Part shown: positions 1-64,000 of the stretch, piece by piece
How the letters are laid out: every line of letters starts with the position of its first letter
Position numbering within the stretch: position 1 is the first letter of the stretch
Position numbers and translations under genes: made by a program
The notes under the pieces: generated by a model
Databases searched by the model: none
What the model saw: only the letters and a program-made list of their open reading frames with translations
What the model was told of the DNA's origin: nothing
Virus record (IMG/VR): IMGVR_UViG_3300037453_000505
Length of the DNA stretch: 64,000 bases
Reading direction: 5' to 3' (one strand)
Source: a virus
Taxonomy: Duplodnaviria; Heunggongvirae; Uroviricota; Caudoviricetes

Positions 1-10
1 TTTAAGAATA

Positions 11-95
11 GATTACTTTTCCAACCTTGTCATTATCTCCTGTTGCTAGTAGTAATCAAAGGGCAGTATTAGAACAGGAGATAATGACAAGGTTG
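11..95. repeat. Perfect inverted repeat forming a long hairpin: a 29-bp stem (cttttccaaccttgtcattatctcctgtt / aacaggagataatgacaaggttggaaaag) around a loop of about 28 nt. It lies immediately upstream of, and overlaps the start of, the first CDS.
   Basis: Direct reverse-complement match seen in the sequence. Confidence 0.7.
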
Positions 96-662
96 GAAAA
101 GTTATCTATTCTTAAAGATGAAAAGCCAACCATATTAGACACAAATTCTCAATTCTTAAAGATTGAGCAGATGTGTAAGGACAGCTGAACAATTAAAAAA
201 CTTAGCATTCAAGATTGAAAGTTGGTGCTAGATTTTGATTGGAGAGTTGTTATAGATACAGATTGAGAGATAGATTGAATGGTGCTACCACCATTTCAAT
301 TGTTAATTGACCTTAGAAATTATACGGTCAGATGAAATCGTTGTTATCACCCACATATTATGGGAGATTATTCGCTTTGTATGGGTTGAAAATTAACTGA
401 TTTAGTTTCAGACTGTATTGCTAAGAGAGATTTGACTACGTTAGTGGGTTGAATGATTGACTTTTGAAATAGCTGGACATCAAGCGATGCTGGAGATAGC
501 GTTAGACACCCTGCTGAATGTATAGTAAGTTATTATACAAACAATGGAGTATCTAGTTGGAATGATTTACCTGTTTCAAAAGAAGCTATCGATAACACAT
601 TATATGACCGCTGACTTGAACGTAGTGAATTGGGAAGTGGATTCTCTAATTTATTTGACTAA
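84..662 (+). CDS. UBC-like E2 ubiquitin-conjugating enzyme homologue (code 25).
   Basis: Translates to about 192 aa with TGA read as Gly. It contains ...RCYHPHIMGDYSLCMGGKL..., which matches the E2 active-site pattern HPN-I-x3-G-x-(I/L)-C with the Cys eight residues after HPx. It is the first gene of the E2-X-E1-JAB cassette. Confidence 0.5.
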
Positions 663-673
663 TAAAATAACTA

Positions 674-1237
674 ATGCACAGAGATGAAAATGTTAGTGCT
701 GCTACTAGCACGGCATACTGAGCAGTAAATCTAAAGGCATTAGCTGACCATTGATACGCTTATCTAGGTAGAGATTTCGATGATTATTATTTTGTTAGGA
801 GAATAGGCGATGGTTATATAATTAAGAGAGTTATAACACTAGATGATAGTGATATGTCAGAAAGAATGCGGGAATGATTTGATGCTCACGATGCTTGGGT
901 TGATGCAGTTAGAAATGGAGATACAGATGAGAGTTATGAAAGTCGACAGAACGATATAGATATTCGAGATGAAGAAGATAGTGAAGATTATCACGATTGC
1001 TGTCAAGAAATTGTTGACATTCTTCATTGATTATGATTATGGAATGGTGATTATTCAAGCTATAACTGAAATTATTTAGATGAGTTTAACACTCAGACAA
1101 TAGATGTAAATATGCTAGATAATCTCTATAATAAACTAGATAAAAATGACGTCTTCAATGAAGAATTATGGAATGATATAGAGAAAACATATTGACTACA
1201 CCAGGTAGAATTTTTAGCTGCTGAACCTATAAGATAA
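674..1237 (+). CDS. Hypothetical acidic protein inside the ubiquitin-like cassette; possibly the conjugated substrate or Ubl component.
   Basis: Continuous ORF of about 187 aa under code 25 (MHRDENVSAATSTAYGAVNLKALADHGY...AAEPIR). No motif recognised. Its position between E2 and E1 is the only basis for the functional suggestion. Confidence 0.35.
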
Positions 1238-1269
1238 TGCCAGAAAGAAACTTTGACAGGGGGTTAGAT

Positions 1270-1893
1270 ATGTTTAACCCTAATCTTTTTAAAGAAAAAA
1301 AGATTTGAATCATAGGTGCTTGATGAATTGGGAGCAATTCAGCCTATGTGTTGAGTAAAATGTGATTAAAGGTTAAGGTCTGCGATTTCGATGAGGTCGA
1401 TGACGTGAATACTAGTTCACAGTTTTATTCAATGGAACAGTTAGGGAAACCTAAGGTAGAAATGTTAAAAGAAAACATAAAGAAAATGTGTGATGAAGAT
1501 ATTGAGATAGTAAATAGCAAGTATGAGAAATGAATGTTTGATGACTGTGATATTTTAATCTTAGCTTTAGATAGCTTAGCAGTTAGAAAACAAGTAATTG
1601 AAACTTGTAAGGACACTCAATTTATTCTTGACACTAGAATGGTTAAGAAAATAGCACAAGTAAATCTATTGTATGGTATTCAGAGACAGACACGAATGGA
1701 AAAAGAATGGAGAGAAGATGCCGACGCTAATAATGCAGGGACTCGTTGCACAGAAAAAGCAGTTGCTTTCAATGCATTATGAATGGCTGCATTAGTTGGT
1801 AGTATTGTGGCAGATAAACTTAATGGTAAAGATTTGAAATATCAATACACCCTAGATTTAGAGAGCTATAATTTATATGTTTTTAATTCATAG
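1270..1893 (+). CDS. E1-like ThiF/MoeB family adenylyltransferase (minimal E1).
   Basis: MFNPNLFKEKKIGIIGAGGIGSNSAYVLSKMGLKV...QLGKPKVEMLKENIKKM...DCDILILALDSLAVRKQVIETC... The Rossmann GxGxxG motif uses two TGA codons as Gly. The PKVE motif and the D-x-D-x-L motif are typical of ThiF/E1. The gene ends with TAG. Confidence 0.8.
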
Positions 1894-1895
1894 GT

Positions 1896-3137
1896 ATGAG
1901 AGAGTGAACAGAAAAATTAAAGCCTATTACTCAGGAAGAAATAAAGCCTATTGATTATAAAGAAATCAATGAGAAAATCTGACTGAATAATATTAAAGTT
2001 CATCAAGCTCCTGTTCTCACTATCTCAGCTTGGTGTCATAATCATATCAGAGCATTACATAAAAAGTATCCATCAGAAGAATGGACAGCTATTTGTAAGA
2101 TAGTTAATCATTGAGAAGGACAATTTGAAATGGTTGATATGATACACCCTTGACAAAAAACAACTAGCTGAGATGTAGAAACAACTGATGAATGAATGGA
2201 ATGGGCTATTGACCACTTGTTAGAACGTGGTGAAGATTTGTGAGAATGGAATTGTATTCTACATTCTCATCATCATATGGGTTGTTTCTGGTCTGCAACA
2301 GATGACAATGCTAGACTAGGAATGAACGATTGAAGAATGCTTATGTGGGCTGTGGTGACAGCTTATAAGTGAGAAGAAATAGATTATAAAGGTTGCCTTA
2401 ACTTTTATAAGCCATACCCTATTGAGATAGATTGTGATATAGAATATTACACAGAAGATTTATATTGACAGAGAGAACAATGGGGAGATTTTATAGAGAA
2501 TAGAACAAAAGAAATCTATAATGAAATGGTGTTGACAGATGAAACATTAAAGGAATATAAATGCGAATATGATTATGATAACCTATTAAAATATTTAGGT
2601 ATAGACATAACAGATGAGCTTAAAGTTAATGCTAATGTAGTTCAAATGAAAATGCCCTGCGAGTGATATGAAAATAGGTTGAAAGAAATTATGGAAGAAG
2701 CTAAGGAAAAAGTTCAGGAAGAGGTATGAGCGCCGGTAGATAATGAGCTTGTTGATTGGTCTAATTGGTCTGATAATTTACTAGAACAGTTAGATGAAAA
2801 CAAGAAAAAATCTGAGGTAGTTAAAACAACTAAATATAATTATGACTATACCAATAGCTGGGACGATTATGAATATAATCGTTTTTATAATACTAAGCCA
2901 ACTAAAGTTAGTAATAGAGATTTCTATGATAACCCTGAAGAAAAGTATTGCGAGTTTAGTTCAATAAACTACCCTACTAAGTGGAGTTTAATAAATGCTT
3001 ATGGTTTGAATGAACAGTTTGAATTTAGGTTGAATGCTGAAAAAGAACGAGAGGTCTATAACACCCACTATAAAATCTGGTGCTATGTATGAGATGAGTT
3101 AGAAGATTTATACACATATCCAGAAGATTATTTATAG
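1896..3137 (+). CDS. JAB/MPN (JAMM) metalloprotease; deubiquitinase-like.
   Basis: About 413 aa. It contains ...EWNCILHSHHHMGCFWSATDDNARL..., the JAMM zinc motif H-x-H-x7-S-x2-D. It starts 2 nt after the E1 stop. Confidence 0.7.
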
Positions 3138-3154
3138 AATAGTTCGGAGTGGGC

Positions 3155-3236
3155 TTAAATGGTGGTAGAGAGATAGGTTATTTTCCGTTGTCCTATCAAT
3201 AGCTGCTAAACAAATAAAGCTCTGCCACCACTTAAG
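3155..3236. terminator. Structured element downstream of the cassette: a 14-bp long-range stem (ggcttaaatggtgg / ccaccacttaagcc, one mismatch) enclosing an inner 6-bp hairpin (gatagg...cctatc).
   Basis: Inverted repeats seen in the sequence. Function is inferred (terminator or small RNA). Confidence 0.3.
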
Positions 3237-3327
3237 CCTGCTCCTAATAAAAAAGAATTAAAAGAAGAGTTGAAATTAGAAAACTAATGTTTATTATAAC
3301 AATAGTTTTATTTTTTTATTTATTAAA

Positions 3328-3861
3328 ATGACAGGTCGTATCAAGTTAAATGCTAAAATAATTGATTGATTATTATGTATTCAATGTAGCAAATGTTCGG
3401 AGATAAAAGATTACACTCATTTTTATAAAACTAATAAGAGTTCTCTTTGATATAGGTGAGTATGTAAAGAGTGCTGCCAAAAATATAGAGAAGATAATAG
3501 AGAAAGAAGACATAATATTTGAAAGAAATATTATGAAGAGCATAAAGAGAAAAGAAAAGAATATAATAGGCAGTATAGAATAAAGAATAAAGATAGATTA
3601 AAAGAATATGATAAGAAAAAGAGGGCTAAAATGTGATATGTAAGTATTCATAATAAGACTAGGAATTTTGTAAAAGAAAATAATTTACAACTTAATGAGT
3701 GTTGTATTTGTGGTAGCTATAGAAAAATAGAATTACACCACCCTAATTATAACAAGCGATATGAGGTTGTTGTAGTTTGTAATTGATGCCACAAAGAAAT
3801 TCATTCTTGATATAGACCTTGCCCTAATGTAATAAATCTTTTAACATTTAACCAACAATAA
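3328..3861 (+). CDS. HNH endonuclease-like zinc-finger protein.
   Basis: About 177 aa. N-terminal CxxC...CKEC followed by a basic repeat (KYYEEHKEKRKEY...). C-terminal ...ECCICGSYRKIELHHPNYNKRYEVVVVCNGCHKEIHSG matches the HNH pattern C..C...HH....VV.VC..CH..IH. Confidence 0.55.
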
Positions 3862-3919
3862 AATGTGCCCGAACCGATGTGAGTGAACAGTTATTATATC
3901 TCGTTTATCGAGAGATAGA

Positions 3920-4491
3920 ATGGAGAGAATAAAAAGGTGGGCAGAAAATGGCAAGCTATGTCAGATGATTATGCCCTACCCAAAAGACGTTAAAGATGAC
4001 TTACAAATAAAAAGACAATATGAAAAAGAATGCGATAGAGCAAGAGAAGAAAAATCATACACAAGAGATACACGAGAAAAACTAAAAGAAAAATATCCTT
4101 TTAAAGATTTACGATATGATTGGTGTGCTAATAATCGAGGTAGTAAGCGAGATTTATGTTATTGTAATTGACATATAAACAATGATTTAACTCTACAATT
4201 TGAGACAGCTTGGTCGCCTGTATTAAATGTCTTTCAGAAATTAAGTCAGAAATATAAATGCACCGTCTATTATGAATTTTCAGAGCCTGGTTGTTGGTTT
4301 AGTGGTAGGTATGTTTATATAGATTGAAGATTAGATGAGTCAGAAAACTTTAATGACCCGTGGTTTGGAGAATGAGTTGAGTGTAAAATATGTCATAATC
4401 ATTATGACGGTAGGTGCGAAGATGATTGGGGAGATATGACAAATCATATCTGTTTAGAATGTTATGAAAATCAATGAACTTAAAACGAGCA
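3920..4491 (+). CDS. Hypothetical Cys-rich protein (about 190 aa).
   Basis: The ORF-track fragment 3920..4171 continues through a TGA into ...CKICHNHYDGRCEDDWGDMTNHICLECYENQGT. Confidence 0.4.
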
Positions 4492-4822
4492 ATCTTTGGG
4501 GCTGATTATTGCCCTTGCCTTTTAACAGAAGACTTTACGGAGGTAAAGCAATTCTTTAGAAACCTAAAATCTGAACATAGTAGAAACGATGATGAATTAA
4601 GCTGGACAGAAATTACATCTATCTATCTATTTGTTTATGATGATAGGTATTCAGTCGAATCTGATATGAGTTGAGAGCTCCTTGTTTTAGATAAGGAGAC
4701 CGATGAGATAGTAGAACAGCAACACTGGGCTGATAGAGTTCCAGGTTTTTTCTATTGTCAGCCACTATCTTTAGAAGATTTTTTAAGACTTAACAAAGAT
4801 TACAAATGAAAAGATTGTATGT
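4474..4822 (+). CDS. Hypothetical protein.
   Basis: The ORF-track fragment 4474..4674 extends through a TGA (..DMSGELLVLDKETDEIVEQQHWADRV...). Confidence 0.3.
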
Positions 4823-5181
4823 AGTTTATGGTTGAGATGATAGACCATTTGCAGAGTGTGAAAGATTTAGGGACGCATATCGTCAAGCAAGAGAATGTCT
4901 TGGGAATGGTAGTGAATATATAACAATAGATATTTATTTGTGGGACTGAGGTAGATGATATACATATGAATGTTCTTATGGAGATTTCTATTTTATAGAT
5001 AGAAAAGGTAATGCTATTCTACCAGAAGACTTATCTGAAATGTGAGTGCTTTGGCTTAATTTATTTAGCCTCGATAAAGATAATATTGATATACTTAAAG
5101 ACGTGGCTAAAACATTTGAGTTTGAGCTTAACGATATAGGCGAATGAATTTATAAAGATTTATATTCTATTCAAAGAAACA

Positions 5182-5510
5182 ATGTTCATAAAAAATAAAG
5201 AGCTTGTTGGAATAACATTAAAGCGAGATGAGAATGAGTTTGGAAAAACATTCCTCAATTTTAGGGGTATCATTTTCATCATACACCCTGTATCAGACAG
5301 GGCTTTTGGAGTAGAGGTTTTATTTCCTAACATATGGCAAGATATGGTTGAAAGCACTCAGTGGCTAGCCTATGATAGAGATTTCGCTGAGTGATATGAG
5401 AGCATAGAGAGCGCACAATATGCAGTGGAAACATACCTATCAAATGTTTTATGATTTACTTTTGAGGAAGATGAGAAAGATAACAAATGACGCGGTTAAG
5501 TCGTTCTTTA
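5182..5510 (+). CDS. Hypothetical protein.
   Basis: The ORF-track fragment 5182..5394 extends through a TGA under code 25. Confidence 0.3.
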
Positions 5511-6280
5511 ATTTAGACTACTTTAAACGCGACAACACTAGAGTGGAACACTTGCCCGGAAGGGTAGAGATGTATTTGTTTTGAAATCGCATAGCAACAT
5601 ATTGGATAAGAGATTGAGTAGTGGAGTTGATAGATTGACATCATCAAACTGTTACGACAAAGGAAAGATTAAATTGAATATTACAATATATGGGTAAATG
5701 ATTTATTTATCAGAAAAACTATGATTGGTATTGGTCTGATGAAAACAATACAGTTAGACCATTTGGTAAATGAATAGCTTTTAGTTGTTTAAAGAAGAAT
5801 GGCATATGGCATATGTAGTATCAATAGATGATGGGTGGGCGACAGAGAACTATTACTTTGCCTATAAACAGAACGCCCTAGAAAAATTTAATAGCCTACT
5901 TGCGGAGGTGGGTAAGGTTAATCTTAACGGCGATAAGATACCGTGTAATGTAGAGAATTGAGAATGATGGATAAGAGTGAAACAAATAAAATGGAGCGAT
6001 GTGGCTAATCAGAAATTTATCTTTGTAGATAATGAAAATAATTTTGTATTAGTCTTAGGAGATTGTGCTACATTTGAGACAGAATATATCAAGCTAACTA
6101 AAAAGTATCGAGATAAAGACTTAGACTGGTCGGGCTTTTACGATGAGTTAGAACAAAAACTAAAATGAAAGGGAGTAGATATTATTCCTGATATTCAAAT
6201 AGTATATCACGACACACTCTCTCGAAATTAAAACAAAATTAAAAAAACACTGGATTTTTTATTTTATTTAATTATAACTA

Positions 6281-6538
6281 TGGCACGAAAAGATTTAGTT
6301 GTGAAGAAAAGATGAAGACCTAAATGACAATCAAAGAGAGTATATAAGTTCTCTTTTGATTGAGCTTTAAAGGGTATGAAGAGTTGAGATATTCTTTATA
6401 CAAGAAAGTTTGATGCAGACGTTACCTCGAGAACTACTGCTCTAGGGTTGAATGGGACATTTAAAACAGAGAGAGTAGTTATGATTCATATGAAATCTGG
6501 AGAGACAGAGAAAGGTGTTTTAATTACTAAATTATAAT
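6281..6538 (+). CDS. Small basic protein with an AT-hook-like KRGRPKG.
   Basis: MARKDLVVKKRGRPKGQSKRVYKFSFDGALKG... is continuous under code 25. Confidence 0.35.
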
Positions 6539-6540
6539 TA

Positions 6541-6973
6541 TGGCAAAAAAACTTAAATCATTATCAATTGAAGAAAGAAAAAAATTATTAGATGAAGCAA
6601 TCGATTTCTTCTCAGCTCTTGGAAAAGAAAGAGAAGATATGGATTATCTTTTATTTAAAGCGTCAGCTATGTCGTGAGTAAGAAAAGCTTTTAATTATAT
6701 CTCAGAAGATGTAATGTGAAGAGAGTTAAAAACAGATAAAGATATAGAAGAAGCAACTTATATTATGCTACAGAATATGGACTTTGAACAATTAATAAAA
6801 ATAGAAAACATATCAGATAGTGATGCCTTTTGGTATTATGGTTGAGTTGGTTTAGCTATTGGTATTTTAAAATGAAATGACAAATTAATTAAAGACTTTA
6901 AAGATGTTCAGAAGGCTCAGGAAGATAGCTGAAACTTATCAACAGAGATAAATATTTTAAATCTTAATGAATA
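6541..6973 (+). CDS. Hypothetical protein (about 143 aa).
   Basis: Continuous code-25 ORF beginning MAKKLKSLSIEERKKLLDEAIDFF. Confidence 0.3.
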
Positions 6974-7335
6974 ATAGGTATGTTTATTGGTGCTATATTG
7001 GTAGCGATATTATGTGCTTGGGGCTGTTTTAGATGATTAAATGAATGACTGCCTAAGCGAATAATTAGACAGAGCTTTTGATTGATAGAATTTTTTTATA
7101 GGTTCTTAAATGTAATAGCTCCAATGTCTTTATTGTATTCACTACTTGCCTTTAAATTCCATTTACCTTCTATAATTATTTGAATTATATTATATGCTAG
7201 TGCATATCTAGTAAAGAAAATAGTTTGGAAGAGTGTTTATGGAGATTATTTAGATTAAAAAATTACAATGTCTTGATTCGCTTTTATCCTAAGAAGGATT
7301 ATTATTAAATTAGTTTTACATTTTAAAAAATAATT

Positions 7336-7739
7336 ATGGCAACTAACAGAAAAGATTATATGAGAGCGTATTATGACTCTCATAAAGAAAAGATTCAGGC
7401 TCAACAAAGAGCTTATTACAAAAGGAAGAAAATGCAGCAAGCTAACCCTTGACTACTAGATTTAAGGGTAGACTTTACTACTCCAACAAGAGAAGATTTT
7501 AAATCTATAAGCCAACCAGAATTGACTTATTCTCAAAGATATTATGCTGCTAATAAAGAAAAAATTAGAGCACAGCAAAAGGCTAGTAGAGAAAAAAAGA
7601 AAAGACAAGAATATCAGAGAGAATATTATAAAGCAAACAAAGATAAAATTAGGGCACAACAAAGAGCTTCATATGCTAAGAAATATAAGAAATCCCTTTT
7701 TAGTAAAGTTATATCAAAGTTTAAATCTTTATTCAAATA
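7336..7739 (+). CDS. Small basic protein with three internal repeats of the motif YY-x-x-(H/N)KEKI-x-AQQ-(R/K)A.
   Basis: MATNRKDYMRAYYDSHKEKIQAQQRAYY...YYAANKEKIRAQQKAS...YYKANKDKIRAQQRASY. The same flavour appears in the HNH protein N-terminus. Confidence 0.4.
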
Positions 7740-7965
7740 AGAAATGTCATATTTAGATGAATGATTCAAGTGGATACGTTGATATGAAGGGTATTATTCC
7801 ATTAATAAAAGTGGAGATATAGCTAGTTATCATAAACTCTGAGGTAGGAAATGATGGGTGTTGAAAGAATATCCCCAATCATTTCTTAAACCTCAGGTGC
7901 AAGACAAATGTTTAGTAGTTAATCTTAATAATGGAACTTGACAAAAAAGATTTAGAGTTAAGAAA

Positions 7966-8250
7966 TTGGTAGCTGAAGCTTTTCTCCATTGCGATAGGAA
8001 TTGCAAGGAAGAAATATATCATAAAGATAGAGACTTTCATAACTGTAGTGCAGATAATTTATATTTGTCTAAATCACATAGTAATGTTATGAAGCATTAT
8101 ATTCACACCCCAGCATATCAAAAGAAACATACACTATTATTAATGAAACAAATTGAAAAAAGGCAAGAGAAAATTGAGAAAGAAAGAAAAAGATTAGATA
8201 AGGACTTAGATAAAGCAAAGGAATTTTTTAGAACTTTCTCTTGCAATTAA
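7966..8250 (+). CDS. Hypothetical protein (ORF-track fragment).
   Basis: 94-aa ORF on the correct strand for this arm. Confidence 0.3.
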   Translation: MVAEAFLHCDRNCKEEIYHKDRDFHNCSADNLYLSKSHSNVMKHYIHTPAYQKKHTLLLMKQIEKRQEKIEKERKRLDKDLDKAKEFFRTFSCN

Positions 8251-8299
8251 TAAATTAATCAGTAAGTTAAGATTAATATAATTTACCCGGAATTATACA

Positions 8300-8725
8300 A
8301 TGACTAAATTTACAGGACGTTTCGCAAACGATATGGAATGGCGATTTGCCCAGCCAGAACCTAAGGCAGGTAAACAAGTATTCTATGGTAGATTATGTTC
8401 TTGATATACAAAAGAACAATCTATCTTAACTTGAGAAAAATGGCTAGAGGTTATGAGGGCTAAATGATTTTATGGGAAAGAAAAGAAATATGTCCCTAAA
8501 TATTCTCGCCTACAAGAAGATGAATGAGTAGCTGAATACACTTGAATAGATATTACCTATTCAAAAGATGAGGCTAGAGTTTTTAGAAAAGAGTTTGCTA
8601 ATGTGATAGAGAATTTAGAACGAGAGCTTAGGCAAACAGAAGATAAGAAATGTATTAAGGAATTGAACGACAAGATAGAATTGGCAAAAGCTGAATTAGA
8701 TTTATTTAATAAATATAATAAGTAA
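8300..8725 (+). CDS. Hypothetical protein.
   Basis: Continuous code-25 ORF: MTKFTGRFANDMEWRFAQPEPKAGKQVFYGRLCSGYTKEQ... Confidence 0.3.
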
Positions 8726-9300: not shown

Positions 9301-9325
9301 ATGTTTTATTTTATTAGGTAGTACA

Positions 9326-10313: not shown

Positions 10314-10526
10314 ATGGAGAAACCTATAACTCTTAAAGAAGAGATTGCTCTTCTTAGAAAAGATTTAGCTCATCTAAATTTGGTTGAACAAAAACTAGAT
10401 TTAGAAATTAGAATGTCTAGAGCTGAAAAAGAAATTGCTAGGAAAGAAGCAGAATTTAAAAGATTGCAAGACCCAGACGAGGATATATATCCTGACTGTC
10501 CACTAGAATGTGCTTGCTGTCGTTAA
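10314..10526 (+). CDS. Small coiled-coil protein ending in a Cys cluster (CPLECACCR).
   Basis: ORF-track 70 aa on the correct strand, immediately upstream of the tRNA cluster. Confidence 0.35.
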   Translation: MEKPITLKEEIALLRKDLAHLNLVEQKLDLEIRMSRAEKEIARKEAEFKRLQDPDEDIYPDCPLECACCR

Positions 10527-10715: not shown

Positions 10716-10719
10716 AAGA

Positions 10720-10790: not shown

Positions 10791-10798
10791 AGTTATAT

Positions 10799-54915: not shown

Positions 54916-55522
54916 TTAAAGCTCAAGGAACAATGTATTTAATATTATTATCATACATTTCCTTTAATTTCTTAAGTTTAGTTTGGAACTTACTATAATA
55001 ATTAGCACTAGCATTAATGTCACTGCTATTTTCTAGAGCGTATTCACTTTTCATATAGAGTCTTAATAAAGAAAGAGTATATCTATCTATATCAACATCA
55101 TCATCCATAGAAGACACTTCTTCAAATCATTTAGAATAGACTATAAAAGCATCCGTTAGTCAAGAAGGCAATAATACATTTACTTTATTATCTCCTACTA
55201 TAGAATAACTATTTCTATCTAAATTATCTCAATACATCTCTTCCATAAGAAGTCTCTTGTATCCAGCACAACAATCTTTAGGGTCTAAACTACATCATAC
55301 ATTACAACCCTTTCAGAAAAAACCTCGCACCTTAGTAATAGGATACGTAGTAGTTATCTGTGCTTTACAATCCGCTACAGCAAATCTCTCTATAACCTTC
55401 CTAGGATAAAAGTCATAGATTTCCATTGCAAAGGAATTTAAAATATCCGAAAATCTAGCTATTTTACTTTCACATCAACTGTCAGTGATGTTTGTTCAAG
55501 CGTATATATCTTTTACTTTCAT
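54890..55522 (-). CDS. Hypothetical structural protein (about 210 aa).
   Basis: MKVKDIYAGTNITDSGCESKIARFSDILNSFAMEIYDFYPRKVIERFAVADCKAQITTTYPITKVRGFFGKGCNVGCSLDPKDCCAGYKRLLMEEMYGDN... includes ORF-track 54923..55117. Its stop overlaps the next ATG (TAAATG). Confidence 0.4.
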
Positions 55523-55529
55523 TATAAAT

Positions 55530-56538
55530 TATTTGTTTAGTGTAAAAGTTGCTATTCAACAATCATAAATTTTTACAAATCAACTCTCAACCATACCGCA
55601 CATATTGTCTTCTAAATCAATAATATGCTCCTCTGTTTTAGGATTATACCGATGGGCGGTTGGTTGACTTATATCTAATAATTTATATCATAGCTTTATA
55701 ATATCGGCATACATACATTTATCTAATCATACTTTTATTTCATCAGTATGATATTTAACGTTATTTAGTAAATTAAGCACATCTTGTTTATCGTCCCAAT
55801 CCCGTACCATAATAATATTATATCAATGATTTATAGCGACTATTGCTTTATCTTGATGATAACTTTTCCGTTTTGGTCTTCATTTTGGAGCTTTAGTAAC
55901 ATTATGATATGTATTAGGATTTATCTCTATAAGAGTATTGTTTGTCTTTATATCAAATGGAGTGCCTCCAATAATAAATTCCATATCCTTTGATTTTTCC
56001 CCTATATCTATATTATATCCATTATTATTCAAGAACCAGGCAAATTTTATATTATAAGAAGATTTAGGATTAGGATTTGCATTATGTAAAGGCTCTAACC
56101 TCTTTTTCTTTTCTTCTTCAGATAAAGAATTAATATGTTTACTCCATACAATTCAGCGACACTTTAAGCTACAGCATTTTTGTCCTTTATAATAAGGTTT
56201 AAAAATTTTTCAACAACCTCCGCACTTTGTTTCGGGGATAGCCCTTACTGAAAAAGCACATTCATTACTACAATATTTTTGCTCCTTATAATATGGCTTA
56301 AAAGTTTTTCAACACAATTCACATACTTTATCGTGCAAGACTTTATGACTAGCATAGCCGCACTCTTTACTACAGAAAAACTGAGTAGAATTTTTAGGAC
56401 GAAATTCTTTTTTACAAAATTTACACAGTCTATCTTTTAATCTTGTTCTAGATTTATAGGAGCATTCGTTGCTGCAATATCTCTGTCCTCTACGAGGTAA
56501 AAATTCTTTTCAACAATATTCGCAAGTTTTAATAGTTT
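55530..56538 (-). CDS. Protein with four tandem zinc-ribbon repeats (C-x2-C-G-K-x-F-x-P ... Q-x-Y-C-S-x-x-C) and a C-terminal domain of unknown function, possibly a nuclease; immediately downstream of the capsid gene.
   Basis: MCNKTIKTCEYCGKEFLPRRGQRYCSNECSYKSRTRLKDRLCKFCKKEFRPKNSTQFFCSKECGYASHKVLHDKVCELCGKTFKPYYKEQKYCSNECAFSVRAIPETKCGGCGKIFKPYYKGQKCCSLKCRG... then ...FIIGGTPFDIKTNNTLIEINPNTYHNV... Confidence 0.45.
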
Positions 56539-56722
56539 TATTACACATAATATTAGTAATAACGCTATAAATATATAATATATTTATATTACTGATAAAT
56601 AAGAGAAATACAAGAGATGCTTAATTAATTAAAAGAAAAGGGAAGGCTAATTAAAGCCCTCCCATATTTGAAAGACTAGATTAGTCTAAAAATTCTACAT
56701 CATCTAATCCACATACTTCACA

Positions 56723-58165
56723 AGAGTTAAGTACGCATTTTCCAAAGTTCTTAATGAATCTATATGCTCCTTTATCAACTCACATCCATACTACAGCAAA
56801 TTTAACATCTCCAACAATCTTATTACATTCTCCGAGTTGAGCTCCGATATTATAAGGATTGTCTGGTAAGTATCTAAGCATAGGAGTTCCGTTCTTAATG
56901 CTTCCATTAATAGGTGCATTAGAAACAACTTTACCGTTAGTATCAACTACAGTATATTTTGGCTGGAATACTCCAACTTTATCTTCAGGGATTGTCAACA
57001 TTACAGAGAAGTCGAAGTCGTTAAGAATTGGAAGATATTTGAAAGTAATAGTTGTTCCAGCATATCTAATTCTTGGTAATCCAACATCGATATCATATTG
57101 ACTTCCATCTAAGAATCCAACATTTCCATAGTCTTGGAAATATCCTTGCATCATATGAAGTCCTTCCATAGCTTTCTTGTTCATAGCAACTGTTACGTTG
57201 TTTTTGTACATTCCAGAAATCATAGCTTTATTGATAACGATATCTAAGAAAGCTTGGATTTGATGTCTAGCGTTTGTACATTCAGAAGCTGATTCATCGC
57301 AGCATCCTTCAAGGTCGAAAGCAATCTTTAATCCATTTTCTTGTGCTTTAGCAAGAGCAGGGAAAAGTCCCATAGTCTCCCATTTGTATGTAGAGATTTG
57401 CATATTTCTATCATAGAAAGCTGCGTGTAAGAATTCTTTAATAGCTTCTACATCTCCTTTTCTGAACATAGCATCTACGATAGCTTGGATTCCTCCAGAG
57501 ATAAGGTAGTCTTTGTTCAAGTCACACCAATTGAATTCGTGAGAAATAGAGATAGTTCTGAAGAATGCAGAATAGTAATCCATTCCTCCTAATTCTACTG
57601 GATTGAAGATTTCAGTTGCACAACTTCTATCTCTTAAGTAAGCTCCTCTTCTAACTTTATCTCCTGCTTGTAATTGAACAGAAGGAGCTTCTTTCAAAGT
57701 AATAACATTTGTAGCAGAATTAACTGATTCAATGTATAATCCATTAACTGGATTTCCTCCTTGTCTCATAACTAAGATAGTTGAATCTCTATTAACTCCT
57801 CCTAATTTTTCAAGAGAAGCAACTTCAATTTCAGCTCCATTTACAGAAACGATTTCAGTCTCTTCACCACAAATTCTTGGTTCATACCAACCTACTTTAC
57901 AATCTCCATCTAACAAAGTCAATTCACTAGAAGCAGCTAAATTGTCTTTGAATTTATAAGTTACATATACTTCTCCTGTTGTAGGGTCTTTTTGAGGTAC
58001 TACATCGAAGAAAATAGTCTCATATCTTAGGAACTCTTCATATTGTCCCCAAGTTTCGAGAACTCTACCATTAGCATACAATGGGTTCAAAATGTCTTGG
58101 AAGCGAACTGATTTTTCAGATAAACCAGTAGCATCGCAAGGATTACAGCTTTGTGTGCTTGCCAT
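56723..58165 (-). CDS. Putative major capsid protein (about 480 aa), a highly expressed structural protein.
   Basis: This is the only ORF over 400 aa in the standard-code track (56780..58165). It has no internal TGA in 461 codons and extends 19 codons past a single TGA near the C-terminus. It lies directly downstream of the scaffold-like gene and portal candidate. It is preceded by AAAGGTG. Function is assigned by position, size and codon usage only. Confidence 0.45.
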
Positions 58166-58289
58166 TTAAGTTCACCTTTTAAAAATAAAAAGAAAAAAGC
58201 TCACGCTATTCCAAGCGTAGCTCAAAAGTTAATTAAATAAATAATTAACCACTAGACTAATACATTCATCTTCTTGATAAAGGTATTCC

Positions 58290-59165
58290 TCTAGGAGTGG
58301 TTTGAGTAGGTTTCTCTACTTCAGCAACTGGTGCGGACGTAGGTACACCTTCTCACATAGTGTTTGATTTTAATGGAGCATTCGCAAAAATGTCCATAAT
58401 TTTGTTAGCACTTATTGAAGGATTCAATACTGCTAACTTTGCAACATAATAGCGAGTTAGATTTTTCTTACTAGCATCGCTTTTGTCTTTTTTGTACGAC
58501 TGTTCTAATCTCCAAAGAGTATAGAATTCATCATCCAATTTTGTTACTCTAGGGTCATTGTCCGTAGTAGTAACTTGTTCATTAAGTTTCTTATTCATAT
58601 CCTTAAGAATTTGAATAGTATTAGCATTCTGTTCGTTATCGAACTGGTGCATACTTCTTTCTTTTTGGAATGCTAAGTAAACTTTTTTAGCCATTTCTTC
58701 TGCAGACTTCTTATCCTTGATATCTTGAAGTCATTGCTTTAACTCTTCGTCAAGCTTATCTGATTCTTTAGATGAAGAAGTTGCTTCAGCTTTTACATCC
58801 TTAGCTTCTTCAGATGGAAGGTCTTTTGTTTGTTCTTTAATAATCTCATCAAGAGCAGCTTCATTCTCTTTTTGAGTTTGATTTGCATCAGCTTCTTGAG
58901 CAACAGTTTCTAATGTTTTGTTTTCGTTAAGTATTTTATTAACTTCATCCAAAACATCTTTTTGTTCGACAGGAGCTTCAGCAGTTTGAGTTGTTTGTGC
59001 AACATCTCAACTTGAAGTTCAAGTTCAGTTGTTATTGGCAACTGTTTGTTCAGATTGTGCAGGCTGAACTACCTGTTCTGCAACTGGTGCAGTTTCATTT
59101 GGATTGGAAATGTTTTGCTGACTCTCAGCAACTTGTCCAATTGTTGTGGTTTCTTCCCCGTTCAT
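58290..59165 (-). CDS. Putative scaffolding protein (acidic, Q/E/K-rich, coiled-coil).
   Basis: MNGEETTTIGQVAESQQNISNPNETAPVAEQVVQPAQSEQ...; ORF-track 58731..58952 and 58353..58694 are joined by TGA. It sits between the portal candidate and the capsid gene. Confidence 0.45.
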
Positions 59166-59587
59166 AATCTTAAATTTATGAATTAAAATACGAATAGATT
59201 TTACTAGCTATGTTTAGATTTTACTCGCTTCCCTTGCCTACCAACTCAAGGTACTATCCCATAGCTAGCTAATCCATTCAACCACCATCACCATTATGCG
59301 TCTACGCATCACTTATAAAAGGTGTCCAATTATCACCTTTTCTATATATAGATTATAAATTTTAAGTTTTTTACTATAACTTTTTAAAATAAAAAGAAAA
59401 ATCTGAGTTCTAAACCCAGATTTTCTTTCTATATTTTATTCTTCATCACATTCTTCATCTCGGATGTTTTGTCATCGTATCGACATTTTTATTGTTGTGG
59501 CAATATAAAATCGAGCTGACTTTCATCTACTTGCTCTGTAGGATATGCAGAATTTACATATGGCGCTTGTGATTGGTCTGGATTAGC

Positions 59588-61509
59588 TCATTGTGCTTGT
59601 TGCATCATTATAGCAATTTCCTCTTCTGAAGGTTGTCCATTGGTAGGCTGTTCAACCTGTTGTGTCTGTTGTACTTGCTGTTGTGCTTCTATTTCTTTTT
59701 GCTGAATGTAATCTTTAATTACATAACTATCGTCAATATATTGTTTTTGTTCATCAGTTGACATAGCTTTAAATCCTTTAAGTCCTGCATAATCTGCAAC
59801 ACTTTCAAGGAATGCTCTATTATCAATATCAGGTAATCCTGTAATAGGGTTAGTAGCGAATGCTGAAGTGTTCTGCATCATAGTCAATAATCATTGAACC
59901 TTAGAAGCTTTAGTTTCTTCAACACCAATATCTGCTGAACATACAATCTTAAATTTCTTATCTAATTCAGATAAGTTGATTACATATTCTTCATCTTCGT
60001 TCTGCACATAAGCTACACTAGCTCAACTTTGTTTAGCAAGTCATAGCCAATGGTAAAACAACTTAGCATAGAATCTACCTATAGATTTAATCATAGGACT
60101 AAGTCTAGCCTTAGAAGCATTAACTCTTTGTTCTGCTCAATATCTTGAACGTTCAATTTTTCATTCTCAACCTAGAACATATGAGTTAACTCAACAAATA
60201 GTATAGGCATCAGCTTTGATATTCTCAAACTGATTCATAGCTAATTGAAGGATATTGTAATCAGTAAAGTCTATCTTTGTAATAGCATTATTCATTCCTG
60301 CATATGATGGATTGATTGAATATACCTTTCATTCATCATAACCAATACTTGTAGGAGCATTACCTGTGGTAGGGTCGGTAATAGCTCATTGAACTGCAGC
60401 TAATACAGGATTCAAATGTCTATAAACAGCATCTGCAATAGAATTAAATAAAGCATTACACTGTTTCTGATGTCACATAACTTTCTTTCAAATTCCACTT
60501 GGAATACATCAAACTCACTTTTCAAATGTTAATTCTATAAATGGTCAATCTTTTCCAGAAATAGCAAAGTCTTCTCAATATTTGAAAGGACTATCCCCTG
60601 AATAAACAAAATAACCATTTACCATAACCATAAGCTTATCACCTATGTATAAGTCAACTACTTCACAGTAGCTAGAAGTATCCAAAATATTAAATGTATC
60701 GTCATAAATCATACCCGTAGGAGTTCCATCACCCAGGTATCCCAAATACGTTGCGGAATACGCATCAATATCATATATCTTTGTAAAATCTGCTTTACTA
60801 AGTGGCATAGGTGCTTCTAGAATGGCTGATTTCTTTTTCTCTACTTGCTTTCACATTCAATCCTTTCAATCCCATATAGGATAGAAAGCATCTTTTAATC
60901 AATCAAATGGGATAAATCTTCTTCTAAATTTCTCTGGTGCTTTATAGAAATCTGTAGCTCAAACGCTATAGAACATTTCAAAAGCTGACACAGGGAATAA
61001 GCAAGGTATAAATGTAACTACATTATCACCTTCATCATTCTTCATTAAGCTTGTAGTATAACCTGGCATTCCATAAGAAGCTCAAATCAATGAAGCTTCA
61101 TTTCTAATAATTTCATTAGTTTGTTCTGTTTCAGAGATTTCTGTTCCCCGTTGGAAAAATAATTGAGCATCGTCAACTATTTGTGCTTCTACTTCTTCCA
61201 TAGGATACACTTTAGGTCTTAAGTCATTATCATATAATGAAGCCATAAATGTATCGTGAATTGAAGTTATTAAAGGATAAATTTTAGCTGACTTATATTG
61301 CATATTATGTTTCTTAAGTCAAGCTTCATACTCTTTAGAATATAACTTATCCATCTTAATAACATCAAACCATTCTGGAAAGATATTGTCTCTAAAGTGG
61401 ATTAGAATGTTTTTAAGTTTTCAGTAGATGGTACGTTCAGCATCAGTGGAGTTATCTTGGTAGATTTTATTCTTTTTCTCCTGCTCCTGCTTTTTTACTT
61501 CGCTATCTA
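59588..61509 (-). CDS. Putative portal protein (about 640 aa).
   Basis: MENIDSEVKKQEQEKKNKIYQDNSTDAERTIYGKLKNILIHFRDNIFPEWFDVIKMDKLYSKEYEAGLKKHNMQYKSAKIYPLITSIH... ORF-track fragments 61082..61303, 60575..60808 and 59588..59887 join in one frame. The assignment is by size and synteny (large ORF, small gene, this gene, scaffold, capsid). Confidence 0.4.
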
Positions 61510-61514
61510 TATTT

Positions 61515-61847
61515 TCCATTAATTTAGATTAGTAGAATTAAAAATATCTGATGCACTTCTGAGTTTTGTCTCAATCTTTACATCCCTCTTATCCTTAGAG
61601 AAACCACAAATATTATCGATTTCTTTGTAATATTTTAAAAGTTTCTCTTCATATCCCTTCTCTTGGGAATCTTGTAAACGTTTAATTTCTTGAACAAGTC
61701 ATCTAAGGTAAAGCTCTTGAGCAGACATTCATAACTCTTCTTGAACGATTCTGTCTAGCATTTCCTTAGCCTTCTCATTTTCTGGGGCAATGTGTTCTGT
61801 CATAACATCATCTTCCATCTGATTTACATCTATTGACATAATTTATT
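61515..61847 (-). CDS. Small protein (about 110 aa) whose stop overlaps the portal start (TAATG).
   Basis: MSIDVNQMEDDVMTEHIAPENEKAKEMLDRIVQEELGMSAQELYLRGLVQEIKRLQDSQEKGYEEKLLKYYKEIDNICGFSKDKRDVKIETKLRSASDIFNSTNLN. Confidence 0.35.
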
Positions 61848-62174
61848 GGCATAAAAATATAAAAGAAATATTAGGTACTTTCGTTGTAAAAAATAATTTA
61901 AGACACATACAATGTTAGAGGTGGACAATTTATCCACCCAAACATTTTGTATGTCTTATTAACTTTCTGCTTCAAGTGCTTTGCTTGTTTTCTTCTCAAT
62001 ATTACTTAATTGCTTTTTTGTTGAAACTTGTTGTGTTTTTGTTGCTTTAACATTTCTGTTAATATCTTTAGCTAAGCTTAGGTCTAAATGAGGTTTGTAC
62101 TTACTAATAGATATCTTACTTACTTCAGGAGTATAACCTTTTAATCACAAATCCTTTACTAGACTTGCACCCTT

Positions 62175-64000
62175 TATAGTTACAGGCACCCATTGTTTAT
62201 AGCTTGTAGTTCCTCAAGCTCATCAATTACTTCTTCAACTACCTCATAACTTACTTGCTAAGTTCTTTAAGGCAGACGAGAAACTTGATGCGGCCTTTCA
62301 ACTTCAAGAAGAACTCTTTCAACTAGTTTGCATACTCTCTAGATTAGATATAGCCATTCAATCCCATTGGTATAGCATTGAATTCATATAATCAGCATAC
62401 ACATCATAGTCATCTCACAATAAAGCTCTAAGCTGCTCTGGGTTCTTTTGAATAAACTCTTTGTTTTTATGGAATAACGCAATCATAGCTGCCTGCTTCT
62501 GTTCTGGACTAAAGCTATCTGTATCGTAAATTCTATTATAGATACTATCAATTAATGTAGCAGTAATAGCTCCTGTAGGGTCACTATTCTTATACATATT
62601 GGTTAAAATAGAAGCTTCAGCAACAGCTAAATTTACATCTCAATCCTCAATAGCTTTAGATACAGCTCAAATCTGTCTAAGGGTTTGTTCATAATTATAT
62701 TTCAAACTTACAGATTTACTTCAATCATCATTCTCTTTCACATTAAAGAACCTATCTAATATCTTCCTATCTCATTCTTTAGCTTGACTTTGAATAATCT
62801 GTAATGCGGCAACTGTAGCGTCATCTTCATCTAATACTTGAAGTTTATCGAAGAATGAAATATTTTCTCACTCTAAAGGCTGTTGTCACATCTTTAACAA
62901 TAATGCCTTATCTAATCATACATTTTCAAATTCTGTCTTCGTCCATTTATTATCTTTACCTTTAGCTCAGGCATTTAAAGCTTCAATTAATTGACTTTCT
63001 CTAGTAGAGATTAAGTTATAAGCTTGTCATTGTCATAACATCTTTACATAAAGCTGATAGTTAGGGTCAGATGAATGATTATTTAACCAATTCTTAGCAT
63101 AATTATAAATTAAATTTGTTGTATAAGTTTCATTATATCAATGGGCTTTTACATCTTCAATTAATTTATTCCAAGATGGGTCAACAACTTTTTCGCTACC
63201 ATTCATTTGAATTTCTCAATGTTCGTTAGTTATATGCTTCATATGGTCTAACCAAAGTTCCATTTCAGTATCAGCCTCATTTCAACTTTCCTTACCATTC
63301 ATATGTCAGTAATCTTCGTATTGAATTAACGACTTAGTAAAGTTAGAACTTCAAGGACGATATTTAGCATTCTCTAACATAGTATTAAAGAATATCTCAG
63401 CCTCTTCTGGAGTTTGTGGAGTAACTATTCATTTCTTATAAAACTCTAATCAAGCTCTAGTATTTTGCATAGTATCAGCTAAATCATTAGCTGTAAAATA
63501 ACTAGGGGCGTTTCTGTTGATAGCTTTCATTACATTCTTAGGTAATGCAGCTAATTGGCTTCAGTTAATAAATGTTTTAGCTAAGTTTCAAGCATAAGTC
63601 CATCTAGTATCCCAAGGCAACCCTGAGTCAAACATTTGTTTAATAGTTTCCCAAGTTTCTGTATTATCTATTTCATAAGAGAAGTTTTTATCTGAACCAA
63701 GTTTGCTTTCTCCCATTATAATAGAAGGGATACCTCAAGTTTGTCAAGTCATTTCATATGTATAACCATATGAATTCATATCTTCATTAACCATATATCT
63801 AAGACTTCAGAACGATAATTTCCACCATTCATTTTCTATATAAGCCCAAGCTCAATCTGGTCAATCTGTAGTCCAAGCTCAAGCAAGTTTAGCTATCCAG
63901 TTATATGGTTTCCATTGTCTTCAGAAGTTTTTACCTAAAGCATTAAAGAAAGCTCATACTCAGAATGTATCTTTATATATAGTAGGGTTCATTGCAGAAG
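62175..64000 (-). CDS. Large ORF truncated by the window edge (at least 608 aa in the window); possibly the terminase large subunit by synteny, unverified.
   Basis: There is no in-frame TAA or TAG on the minus strand from 64000 down to a TAA at about 62175; many TGA=Gly codons. ORF-track 62415..62597 lies inside it. The Walker motifs expected for a terminase ATPase would be beyond the window, so none was seen. Confidence 0.3.

Follow-up and report, generated by a model that had tools for sequence, protein, structure and literature searches.

Evidence for an Absconditabacteria-type genetic code, with UGA as Gly and CGA and CGG as Trp, in a tailed-phage genome

Gene layout of the phage window

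The window, by which we mean the whole 64,000-nt stretch of DNA analyzed here, has a GC content of 32.6% and encodes an HK97-fold capsid protein, tail fibres, a holin and a tRNA cluster, in keeping with its identification as phage DNA from the sequence alone. The two-arm organization proposed in that sequence-only reading was also borne out: 98% of coding bases lie on the + strand left of ~27.6 kb and on the - strand right of it, and the GC skew changes sign at ~27.6 kb, where the arms converge. Based on relatives found as stand-alone contigs of 72-82 kb, the full genome is ~76-82 kb. The features assigned are as follows.

84..27542, + strand: early/nucleic-acid-metabolism arm, with ThiF/E1-like, JAB-like, Pnkp-RNA ligase, SPFH, Dcm methylase and RusA-like genes and tRNAs (Pfam and PHROG matches)
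1168-1893, + strand: ThiF/E1-like gene (ThiF, E=5e-14)
1896-3137, + strand: JAB-like gene, directly after the ThiF/E1-like gene (Prok-JAB, E=2.3e-3, below threshold)
10624..11268, + strand: tRNA cluster, Ser(GCU), Gln(UUG), Gly(UCA), Ile(GAU), Asn(GUU), His(GUG) and Arg(UCU) (ARAGORN; Rfam tRNA 52-69 bits)
10799..10875, + strand: tRNA-Gly(UCA), the UGA decoder, with the Gly identity set (ARAGORN label 'SeC', from the anticodon alone)
11119-11189, + strand: tRNA-like remnant inside the tRNA cluster (Rfam 18 bits, E=1)
11291..13474, + strand: kinase-phosphatase-RNA ligase fusion, Pnkp/Rnl1-like (AAA_33, Metallophos and RNA_lig_T4_1 domains)
16601..16674, + strand: tRNA-Trp(CCA) of ordinary bacterial Trp identity (A1:U72, G73), distinct from tRNA(UCA)
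16698..17684, + strand: C5 cytosine DNA methyltransferase (DNA_methylase, E=3e-47; PDB alignments)
27707..63998, - strand: late arm, with a giant protein (C-terminal part), portal-like, scaffold-like, major capsid and tail/fibre proteins, holin and peptidase
29471-29950, - strand: holin (Phage_holin_4_1, E=8e-14), in the lysis cassette at 29471..30888
29962-30888, - strand: papain/C39-like peptidase of the lysis cassette (Peptidase_C39_2, E=1.3e-4, below the Pfam threshold)
37644..50565, - strand: tail-fibre/receptor-binding module (Pfam matches), with many informative CGA/CGG sites
37644-39239, - strand: FISUMP-repeat protein of the tail-fibre module (Pfam)
41009-41695, - strand: LamG protein of the tail-fibre module (Pfam)
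41711-42256, - strand: F5/8-C protein of the tail-fibre module (Pfam)
42262-47445, - strand: 1727-aa protein of the tail-fibre module
47563-50565, - strand: 1000-aa protein of the tail-fibre module
56681..58165, - strand: major capsid protein (HK97 fold), nearly without reassigned codons
59489..61519, - strand: portal-like protein (weak PHROG match only, phrog_156, E=2.8e-4)

The portal-like gene lies upstream of the scaffold-like and capsid genes, an order that fits a portal. Phage_fiber_rpt and an Ig-like tail domain were also matched, as were RusA-like and HNH genes; a PDB search with the LamG protein gave no match. For structural work on the capsid protein, a 98%-identical database relative served as a stand-in. 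A greedy call of a + strand ORF at 35647-36375 was rejected as spurious; three - strand ORFs occupy the locus. No large terminase was found among the ~45 predicted proteins scanned, a set that covers the small ORFs only partly, and the gene presumably lies outside the window, with ~12-18 kb of genome beyond. The local tRNA cluster noticed from the sequence is real: seven tRNAs lie together, with tRNA-Trp separate from them, and a close relative (L105) has the same cluster.

Metagenome assemblies contain relatives of this phage in at least 73 capsid-protein clusters, and a relative of 76 kb is present in GenBank as part of a 'Methanobrevibacter' MAG. No relative was found among GenBank phages by megablast (24 kb) or tblastn (capsid protein), or in IMG/VR by scans with capsid peptide patterns and the exact tRNA. 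The lineage is common in metagenome assemblies, but the reference phage collections searched yielded no member of it.

Decoding of TGA, CGA and CGG

Re-prediction of the genes agreed with the proposal that TGA is a sense codon, as greedy coding density rose from 22.6% under table 11 to 92.2% with TGA as sense (controls: TAG as sense, 37%; TAA as sense, 56%). There are 34 stop-to-stop ORFs of at least 200 aa with TGA as sense, versus 2 with all three stops (controls: TAG as sense, 2; TAA as sense, 11); these two, of 461 and 265 aa, correct an earlier count of one ORF over 200 aa. Of the 85 ORFs called, 83 contain TGA; the stop codon is TAA in 70 and TAG in 15. In early-arm genes TGA makes up 20-100% of the Gly codons.

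Alignments, composition, codon exchange and the identity of tRNA(UCA) all agree that TGA means Gly and not Trp. Three motifs cited for this assignment in the sequence-only reading are present as described and hold in alignment. The E1 Rossmann motif, KI-TGA-IIGA-TGA-TGA-IGS, aligns with GcGGiG, GlGGlG and GiGGvG of MccB, MoeB and TcdA, with TGA as Gly restoring the GxGGxG of the ThiF/E1-like gene; the Pnkp P-loop, FR-TGA-AP-TGA-CGKST, aligns with GssGsGKST, and with FRGAPGCGKST in homologues; and motif IV of the methyltransferase, G-TGA-SPCQ-TGA-FS, aligns with AGFPCQAFS of M.HhaI. A check of Gly conservation at the Pnkp TGA positions (32 columns, 103 standard-code homologues) found G at 55% and W at 0%, and nine of the TGA columns are invariant G among these homologues. 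Of 21 conserved Pnkp columns with TGA, 19 are G, and the remaining codons with good sampling keep their standard meanings. Comparison with relatives gave 404 exchanges between TGA and GGA, GGT or GGG.

The tRNA(UCA) has a 7-bp acceptor stem, a short variable loop, G1:C72, C2:G71, G3:C70 and U73. The features by which Gly identity was assigned to tRNA(UCA) by Shulgina and Eddy (eLife 2021; PMC8629427) are all found in the phage tRNA, and the selenocysteine identity implied by the ARAGORN label was rejected on structure.

These data leave next to no room for translation under table 4, in which TGA would be Trp, the reading found in phages that infect Mycoplasma-type hosts and in TGA-recoded gut phages with a suppressor tRNA-Trp. 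Database relatives are indeed stored with W at TGA (e.g., FRWAPWCGKST), but this is how public pipelines translated them, and the alignments at TGA positions already refute it: the glycines of the P-loop and the Rossmann motif sit on TGA, and Trp is absent from all 32 Pnkp columns. With codon shares of 4.38% for TGA, 3.28% for GGN and 1.37% for TGG, table 4 would also require a proteome with 5.8% Trp and only 3.3% Gly, compared with 7.7% Gly if TGA is Gly, and the terminal pairs and U73 of tRNA(UCA) are unlike those of the real phage tRNA-Trp. Public databases consequently hold this phage family in the wrong code, with W for G (code 4) or with shredded genes (table 11).

Table 25 had been proposed for the whole window; its assignment of UGA to Gly stands, but its standard reading of the other codons does not, since comparison of aligned codons shows CGA and CGG behaving like Trp codons rather than Arg codons. 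The window contains 61 CGA and 10 CGG codons (31 and 5 per 10,000 codons). At 13 of 44 aligned CGA/CGG sites a relative has TGG, and at none does a relative have a different Arg codon; among 364 ordinary Arg sites, 1 is TGG (p=6e-13) and 302 pair with other Arg codons. The TGG-paired sites comprise eight CGA and five CGG (5/6 of the aligned CGG sites); the comparison involves seven relatives that are mutually non-independent, and CGG, with 10 codons in total, is the thinner half of the result. Counted as pairwise codon exchanges, 31 are with TGG and one is with an Arg codon. Four of the 44 sites pair with Phe or Tyr codons and a few CGA sites with Lys, Ser, Ala or His codons, and decoding of CGA may be ambiguous or mixed at a few sites.

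Protein-level comparisons point the same way. The sole CGA codon of the Pnkp gene falls in a column that is Y50/W45/F2 and never Arg among standard-code homologues, and the repeat NNNL-CGA-GGV of the 1727-aa protein matches NLWGGV of its paralogues. A search for standard-code comparators with a LamG and FISUMP chimera protein returned only recoded, W-rich phage relatives among the best 120 matches, and Pfam score differences were used for the CGA sites in their place. Reading CGA/CGG as W raised Laminin_G_3 from 53.0 to 62.9 bits (+9.9) and F5_F8_type_C from 24.4 to 31.5 bits (+7.1); the Fib_succ_major score did not gain because the CGA sites fall outside the matched part.

Plain table 25, with TGA alone reassigned and CGA and CGG remaining Arg, is the code registered for SR1 and Gracilibacteria. 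The low frequency of CGA and CGG, the basic-looking contexts of several CGA sites (e.g., KGRPK-CGG-KSY) and one CGA/CGG site that pairs with AAA would all suit an Arg reading. We nevertheless consider it improbable, as it is contradicted by the lack of any pairing with AGA, AGG, CGT or CGC at the 44 sites, by the aromatic Pnkp column and by the Pfam scores that rise with W. If CGA and CGG are Trp, table 25 still puts Arg for Trp at 71 positions in the window, several of which are core aromatics of receptor-binding domains. Our main reading, to which we assign a probability of roughly 0.85, is that the window represents ~80% of a dsDNA tailed-phage genome written in an Absconditabacteria-type code with UGA as Gly and CGA/CGG as Trp.

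Probable host and translation of the recoded genes

A host of Gracilibacteria/Absconditabacteria type had been proposed for this phage. The requirement for a lineage that reads UGA as Gly was upheld, and the CGA/CGG result narrows the assignment towards Absconditabacteria, since the combination of CGA and CGG as Trp matches the code predicted for that group. In the Codetta analysis of Shulgina and Eddy (PMC8629427), Absconditabacteria read UGA as Gly and both CGA and CGG as Trp, and the phage resembles those bacteria in its three reassignments, low GC and CGA/CGG frequencies (31/5 here versus <37/<7 per 10,000). Their inference was made from bacterial genomes, whereas ours comes from a virus and from codon exchanges among phage relatives, and is independent support. 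The evidence thus points, although indirectly, to Absconditabacteria (SR1) as the probable host. The CGA/CGG signal would provide virus-side support for a reassignment so far only computationally predicted in Absconditabacteria, and a code-based host marker for these bacteria versus most Gracilibacteria.

A host among the Gracilibacteria (BD1-5) is a less likely alternative, but one that deserves some weight. UGA stands for Gly in the two clades alike, and a Trp reading of CGG has been predicted for some Gracilibacteria (PMC8629427). The phage tRNA(UCA) is 82-92% identical (61-68/74), with the same anticodon arm, to chromosomal tRNA(UCA) of ~80 Absconditabacteria/SR1/Gracilibacteria MAGs, and this similarity does not separate the two groups: identity is 63/74 to Gracilibacteria-labeled MAGs versus 61-65/74 to SR1-labeled ones, and the two best matches (68/74) are unclassified or labeled 'Peribacteria'. 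Against a Gracilibacteria host, CGA too behaves as Trp (8 sites), the combination reported for Absconditabacteria (PMC8629427). Most of the clearly recoded phages in Liu et al. (mBio 2023; PMC10746230) were also assigned to Absconditabacteria, with 34/38 Gracilibacteria phages not clearly recoded. When 185,579 species-representative genomes were scanned with the capsid protein, neither a prophage nor a misbinned copy turned up, and no CRISPR spacer match was found. TGA use far above that of any host was considered and rejected, because the phage's TGA share of Gly codons (57-59%) falls inside the range of the host loci (8-82%).

We expect the phage to depend on its host to read UGA, CGA and CGG, because almost all genes in the two arms contain TGA, no phage tRNA for CGA/CGG is present and equally TGA-heavy relatives show no tRNA(UCA) in the stretches fetched. 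The anticodons UCG and CCG are absent from the window tRNAs (ARAGORN and the Rfam tRNA model), that is, the tRNA(UCG)/(CCG)-Trp required for CGA/CGG decoding is not in the phage window. For two relatives (L001 and L106), the proteins of which are W-rich under code 4 and thus TGA-rich, the 14-22 kb retrieved around the Pnkp gene contains no tRNA(UCA). The phage's own tRNA-Gly(UCA), being host-like in sequence, would have been acquired from the host lineage. Together with tRNA-Trp(CCA) it may act as a supplement, since TGA is the commonest Gly codon (~58%) and TGG is used at 2.4x its level in sampled host DNA.

The presence of a phage-encoded tRNA that reads UGA could alternatively suggest that the phage itself drives the recoding in a standard-code host, using its suppressor tRNA-Gly(UCA) so that TGA times the late genes; such systems are described in PMC10746230. 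We think this very unlikely. TGA is present in 83/85 ORFs, among them all early-arm genes that reach 100 aa, and under this model nothing could be translated before the tRNA accumulates. In addition, L001 and L106 are equally TGA-rich with no tRNA(UCA) in the stretch fetched, the phage encodes no decoder for CGA/CGG as Trp, the ~45 predicted proteins scanned include neither a release factor nor an aminoacyl-tRNA synthetase, and the late capsid gene lacks TGA, the opposite of what the model predicts.

Known recoded phages and the codon usage of the capsid gene

The statement that phages of code-25 lineages are poorly characterized proved overstated, as Liu, Jaffe, Chen, Bor and Banfield (mBio 2023; PMC10746230) describe dozens of Absconditabacteria and Gracilibacteria phages and prophages with dense in-frame TGA. 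Their set, sourced from IMG/VR and GVD, includes 50 Absconditabacteria phages; the phage studied here resembles the phages of that work in its dense TGA, collapse of coding density under table 11, hallmark genes and inferred UGA=Gly host. A phage with TGA as Gly is therefore not new (2023), and CGA/CGG as Trp is the extension. Liu et al. compared only tables 25 and 11. Searches of PMC10746230 found nothing on CGA/CGG or on capsid genes, and the suppressor-tRNA passages found there concern code-4 phages, not a tRNA-Gly(UCA) as here. In the literature searched, no paper reports CGA/CGG as Trp, or capsid purging of reassigned codons, for phages.

Stop-recoded phages of standard-code hosts, as described in PMC10746230 and bioRxiv 10.1101/2021.08.26.457843, read TAG as Gln or TGA as Trp with a phage suppressor tRNA, release factor and synthetase. 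The present phage is like them in encoding a tRNA that reads a canonical stop codon. It is unlike them in that recoding is genome-wide rather than concentrated in late genes, the amino acid is Gly, neither release factor nor synthetase was found among the ~45 proteins scanned, the stretches fetched from two relatives contain no decoder tRNA and the capsid gene shuns the recoded codon. In following a host sense-codon reassignment without a tRNA for it, the phage resembles the AGG=Met phages from baboon gut, which adopted their host's reassignment without a tRNA of their own (PMC8629427); the codons, amino acid and host clade differ, and here the sense reassignment is combined with that of a stop codon.

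The capsid gene departs strongly from the codon usage of the rest of the genome. Only 1 of its 42 Gly codons is TGA, versus 59% elsewhere (binomial p=4e-15), while 17/18 Arg codons are AGA and 5/5 Trp codons are TGG. Phe is encoded by TTC in 88% of cases versus 30% elsewhere, and the NNC share is 0.44 versus 0.24 (p=2e-8). This avoidance is kept in 73 relatives down to 48% identity, and in L003. Recent horizontal gain of the gene from a standard-code phage was rejected because the TGA-poor state is kept to 48% identity and the GC content of the gene is in line with the remainder of the genome.

The capsid gene, which we assume to be the most highly expressed, has a strong codon bias and shuns TGA, CGA and CGG. 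The reassigned codons may be abundant elsewhere through AT-biased mutation and may be translationally inferior, being read either more slowly or, within the UGA/UGG box, with more errors. We consider it likely that this phage lineage deviates from the standard code at three codons and that the purging of its capsid gene reflects a cost of reassigned codons even where one is the commonest synonym. The capsid gene's codon usage bears on a question left by Liu et al., whether dense TGA is due to codon optimization or mutational drift; the capsid avoidance, if the reassigned codons are indeed inferior, runs against codon optimization. On the host side, EF-Tu was not near the tRNA(UCA) loci, and the single host locus carrying L10 and L7/L12 has 0 TGA, in a genome that uses little TGA anyway.

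Reading frames and the meaning of TGA

When all three stop codons were applied, the window (G+C content 32.6%) contained two stop-to-stop ORFs of at least 200 aa (461 and 265 aa), versus 34 with TGA read as sense, the longest being 1737 aa. The sequence-only reading had described this shredding of the frames correctly, although it counted one ORF over 200 aa with TGA as a stop. Control read-throughs yielded two such ORFs with TAG as sense and 11 with TAA as sense. A greedy ORF set had a coding density of 22.6% under table 11, which rose to 92.2% when TGA was sense (TAG and TAA controls, 37 and 56%, respectively), so gene re-prediction improved both measures as had been proposed. Strand coherence was seen only in the TGA-sense set, in which 98% of coding bases are on the + strand to the left of ~27.6 kb (the early arm) and 98% on the - strand to the right of it (the late arm), and the GC skew switches sign at the same point. 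TGA is present in 83 of the 85 ORFs, and genes terminate in TAA (70) or TAG (15) and in no other codon. The + strand ORF 35647-36375 was discarded as an artefact of greedy calling, as three ORFs on the other strand fill this stretch:

35379-35930, - strand, replacement ORF
35997-36260, - strand, replacement ORF
36278-36496, - strand, replacement ORF

TGA makes up 4.38% of the codons in the window, GGN 3.28% and TGG 1.37%. Read as glycine it gives proteins with 7.7% Gly and 1.4% Trp, versus 3.3% Gly and 5.8% Trp when read as tryptophan. The main test of the code was a gene whose family is very large in metagenomes (>3500 matches):

11291-13474, + strand, Pnkp fusion, a P-loop kinase, metallophosphatase and T4 Rnl1-type RNA ligase in one polypeptide; directly downstream of the tRNA cluster

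Its start is probably the M at 11291, since the longest ORF begins within tRNA-Arg. In an alignment with 103 homologs of normal Trp content (standard code), G occupied 55% of the cells in the 32 TGA columns and W none, and nine columns were invariant G; for reference, the same homologs had 47% G opposite GGN and 45% W opposite TGG. Of 21 conserved TGA columns 19 had G, and standard meanings were recovered for the other well-sampled codons. The expected glycine conservation was thus found, and tryptophan is excluded. The P-loop of this enzyme, the GxGGxG motif of the E1-like protein and motif IV of the MTase, all previously cited in favor of glycine, agree with solved structures when TGA is Gly, as does the GN of motif X. 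There were also 404 exchanges between TGA and GGA, GGT or GGG relative to related phages.

Absconditabacteria are predicted to read CGA and CGG as Trp besides UGA as Gly (Shulgina and Eddy, 2021; PMC8629427). The window has 61 CGA and 10 CGG codons. Opposite the sole CGA of the Pnkp gene, the 103 standard-code homologs have Y in 50 cases, W in 45, F in two and R never. A codon-by-codon alignment of the window genes with seven relatives, which are not independent of each other, provided 44 CGA/CGG sites; a relative has TGG at 13 of these (8 CGA and 5 CGG sites), Phe/Tyr codons at four and Lys at one, and AGA, AGG, CGT or CGC at none. At ordinary Arg sites, by comparison, other Arg codons were opposite at 302 of 364 and TGG at one (Fisher p=6e-13). 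In the reverse direction, a relative has CGA or CGG at 16 TGG sites of the window. Table 25, put forward earlier as the full code, therefore holds for TGA, on composition, alignment and motifs, but not for CGA and CGG, which it leaves at their standard meaning and which behave as Trp. Reading the two codons as W instead of R raised the scores of Laminin_G_3 (53.0 to 62.9 bits), F5_F8_type_C (24.4 to 31.5 bits, now above the Pfam threshold) and DUF1281_C (49.4 to 50.9); that of Fib_succ_major was the same because no CGA lies inside the matched part. The repeat NNNL-CGA-GGV of the 1727-aa fiber protein is NLWGGV and NLWGEI in its paralogs within the window.

Transfer RNAs and the host

Two of the window's tRNAs bear directly on the code:

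10799-10875, + strand, tRNA-Gly(UCA), with a 7-bp acceptor stem, short variable loop, G1:C72, C2:G71, G3:C70 and U73
16601-16674, + strand, tRNA-Trp(CCA), with A1:U72 and G73, unlike the phage tRNA(UCA)

ARAGORN labeled the former "SeC" from its UCA anticodon, a label we rejected given its ordinary cloverleaf, 7-bp acceptor stem and short variable loop. The tRNA-Gly(UCA) calling rule of Shulgina and Eddy is the identity set found in this tRNA (PMC8629427). Across 185,579 species-representative genomes, 95 stretches fit the structural pattern of a Gly-type tRNA(UCA), ~80 of them 74-nt tRNA(UCA) in MAGs labeled Absconditabacteria, SR1, Gracilibacteria, "Peribacteria", Patescibacteria or unclassified, with conserved synteny to tRNA-Tyr, Ala, Arg and Glu. 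Compared with these MAG tRNAs, that of the phage matches at 61-68 of 74 positions (82-92% identity), and its anticodon arm, GCAGA-CTTCAGC-TCTGC, is unchanged. A scan of IMG/VR with the Gly-type pattern gave two contigs, whose tRNAs have a D-arm and anticodon stem unlike the MAG host type. L109 (IMGVR_UViG_3300020577_006161), an unrelated 46-kb TGA-recoded contig (ORFs of at least 150 aa rise from 1 to 11 with TGA as sense), has a Gly-type tRNA(UCA) at 5555-5634 whose D-arm and anticodon stem differ from the Absconditabacteria type.

The tRNA set varies among the relatives L001, L106 and L107 over the 14-22 kb retrieved around each Pnkp gene: tRNA-Gln, Ser, Cys, Leu and Gly(UCC) occur in one of them and tRNA-Pro, Tyr, Ile and Arg in another. 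Of the stretches fetched, only that of L105 (96% identical) shares tRNA-Gly(UCA) with the window. The genes for tRNA-His and tRNA-Arg are separated by 80 nt that hold a tRNA-like remnant (11119-11189, + strand) with a good 7-bp acceptor stem, an Rfam tRNA score of 18 bits (E=1) and no ARAGORN call, which is possibly a decayed tRNA gene.

As neither a UCG nor a CCG anticodon occurs among the window's tRNAs, the decoding of CGA and CGG must come from the host. The same must be true of TGA, because it occurs in all early genes and because no tRNA(UCA) turned up in the 14-22 kb retrieved around the Pnkp genes of L001 and L106, which are equally TGA-rich. Judged from codon meanings, the three-codon code points to Absconditabacteria as the probable host; CGG as Trp is predicted for only some Gracilibacteria (PMC8629427). 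Similarity of tRNA(UCA) does not separate the two groups. There was no CRISPR spacer match, and no prophage link was found in the 185,579 species-representative genomes. The relatives' sample names ("Methanobrevibacter sp." MAG GCA_017652345.1 and ENA "TONG22-1" scaffolds) may point to a ruminant gut origin.

Codon usage of the capsid gene and database relatives

In the major capsid gene (56681-58165, - strand), TGA accounts for one of 42 Gly codons (GGA 36, GGT 5), versus 59% elsewhere (binomial p=4e-15). CGA and CGG are absent, all five Trp codons are TGG, and AGA makes up 17 of 18 Arg codons. TTC encodes 88% of Phe versus 30% elsewhere, and the NNC share is 0.44 versus 0.24 (p=2e-8). The gene is likewise TGA-poor in L003 and, with a single exception, in 73 relatives whose identity goes as low as 48%. 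We interpret this bias as a result of translational selection on what would be the gene with the highest expression, both the high expression and the mechanism being inferred; on this reading, the reassigned codons are favored by mutation but translationally inferior. The pattern does not fit the codon optimization discussed for dense TGA by Liu et al. (2023; PMC10746230). The phage TGA share is not unusual, as host loci span 8-82% of Gly codons. A 548-aa structural gene (50594-52240, - strand) is also GGA-rich (24 TGA versus 28 GGA), as is its L003 homolog.

The 17 closest database relatives carry W at TGA positions (FRWAPWCGKST) and 5-7% Trp, and were therefore translated with code 4, as were most others, W standing for G. 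L003 (GenBank JAGCBE010000101.1, 76,181 bp), placed in the "Methanobrevibacter sp." MAG, is annotated with table 11 and shows only scattered short ORFs, plus the capsid gene ending at 443 aa at its TGA. The lineage is thus mistranslated in protein databases, and no member was found in the phage collections searched. Liu et al. (2023; PMC10746230) had described dense in-frame TGA in phages and prophages of these hosts, so a TGA = Gly phage is already a known type; the reading of CGA/CGG as Trp in a phage and the codon avoidance of the capsid gene extend this, and neither was found in the literature searched.

Gene content

The proposal of a phage-like genome was upheld. The neighbors of the capsid gene include a putative portal gene (weak match), a scaffold-like gene with an acidic product and an Ig-domain protein; also on this side are tail-fiber repeat proteins (1000 and 1727 aa) with FISUMP, LamG and F5/8-C modules, together with a holin and a cysteine peptidase. 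On the opposite arm are eight tRNAs along with genes of the ThiF/E1-like, JAB-like, Pnkp-ligase, SPFH, Dcm and RusA-like types. Neither terminase nor integrase was seen among the scanned proteins of the window, which is roughly 80% of a genome since relatives are stand-alone contigs of 72-82 kb; some 12-18 kb would lie outside it. Further features are:

1168-1893, + strand, ThiF/E1-like gene; the next gene (413 aa) is JAB-like on a weak match, and unknown ORFs lie on the flanks
3863-4483, + strand, DUF1281_C/Api92-like protein
55529-56548, - strand, HNH-endonuclease gene that separates the capsid gene from the structural gene next to it; repeated CxxC motifs resembling zinc fingers
61959-63998, - strand, ORF cut by the window end, C-terminus of a protein of 3000-3500 aa in relatives

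The giant protein (61959-63998; L099, L103, L104 1-6336) is encoded directly upstream of the portal-like gene, and no domain was recognizable in it. The HNH gene appears to be a homing endonuclease that inserted in this phage only, because its flanking genes are adjacent in L003, L099, L103 and L104. The region 84-4483 (+ strand), conserved in L105, may encode a module for ubiquitin-like conjugation or deconjugation, and the Pnkp fusion would be a tRNA-repair enzyme countering host anticodon nucleases. FISUMP (Fibrobacter succinogenes major paralogous) modules are common to three fiber proteins (37644-39239, 42262-47445 and 47563-50565, - strand), and their near-identical repeats, e.g., GKYYQ-[CGA/CGG]-GNNYGF, suggest module shuffling among receptor-binding proteins.
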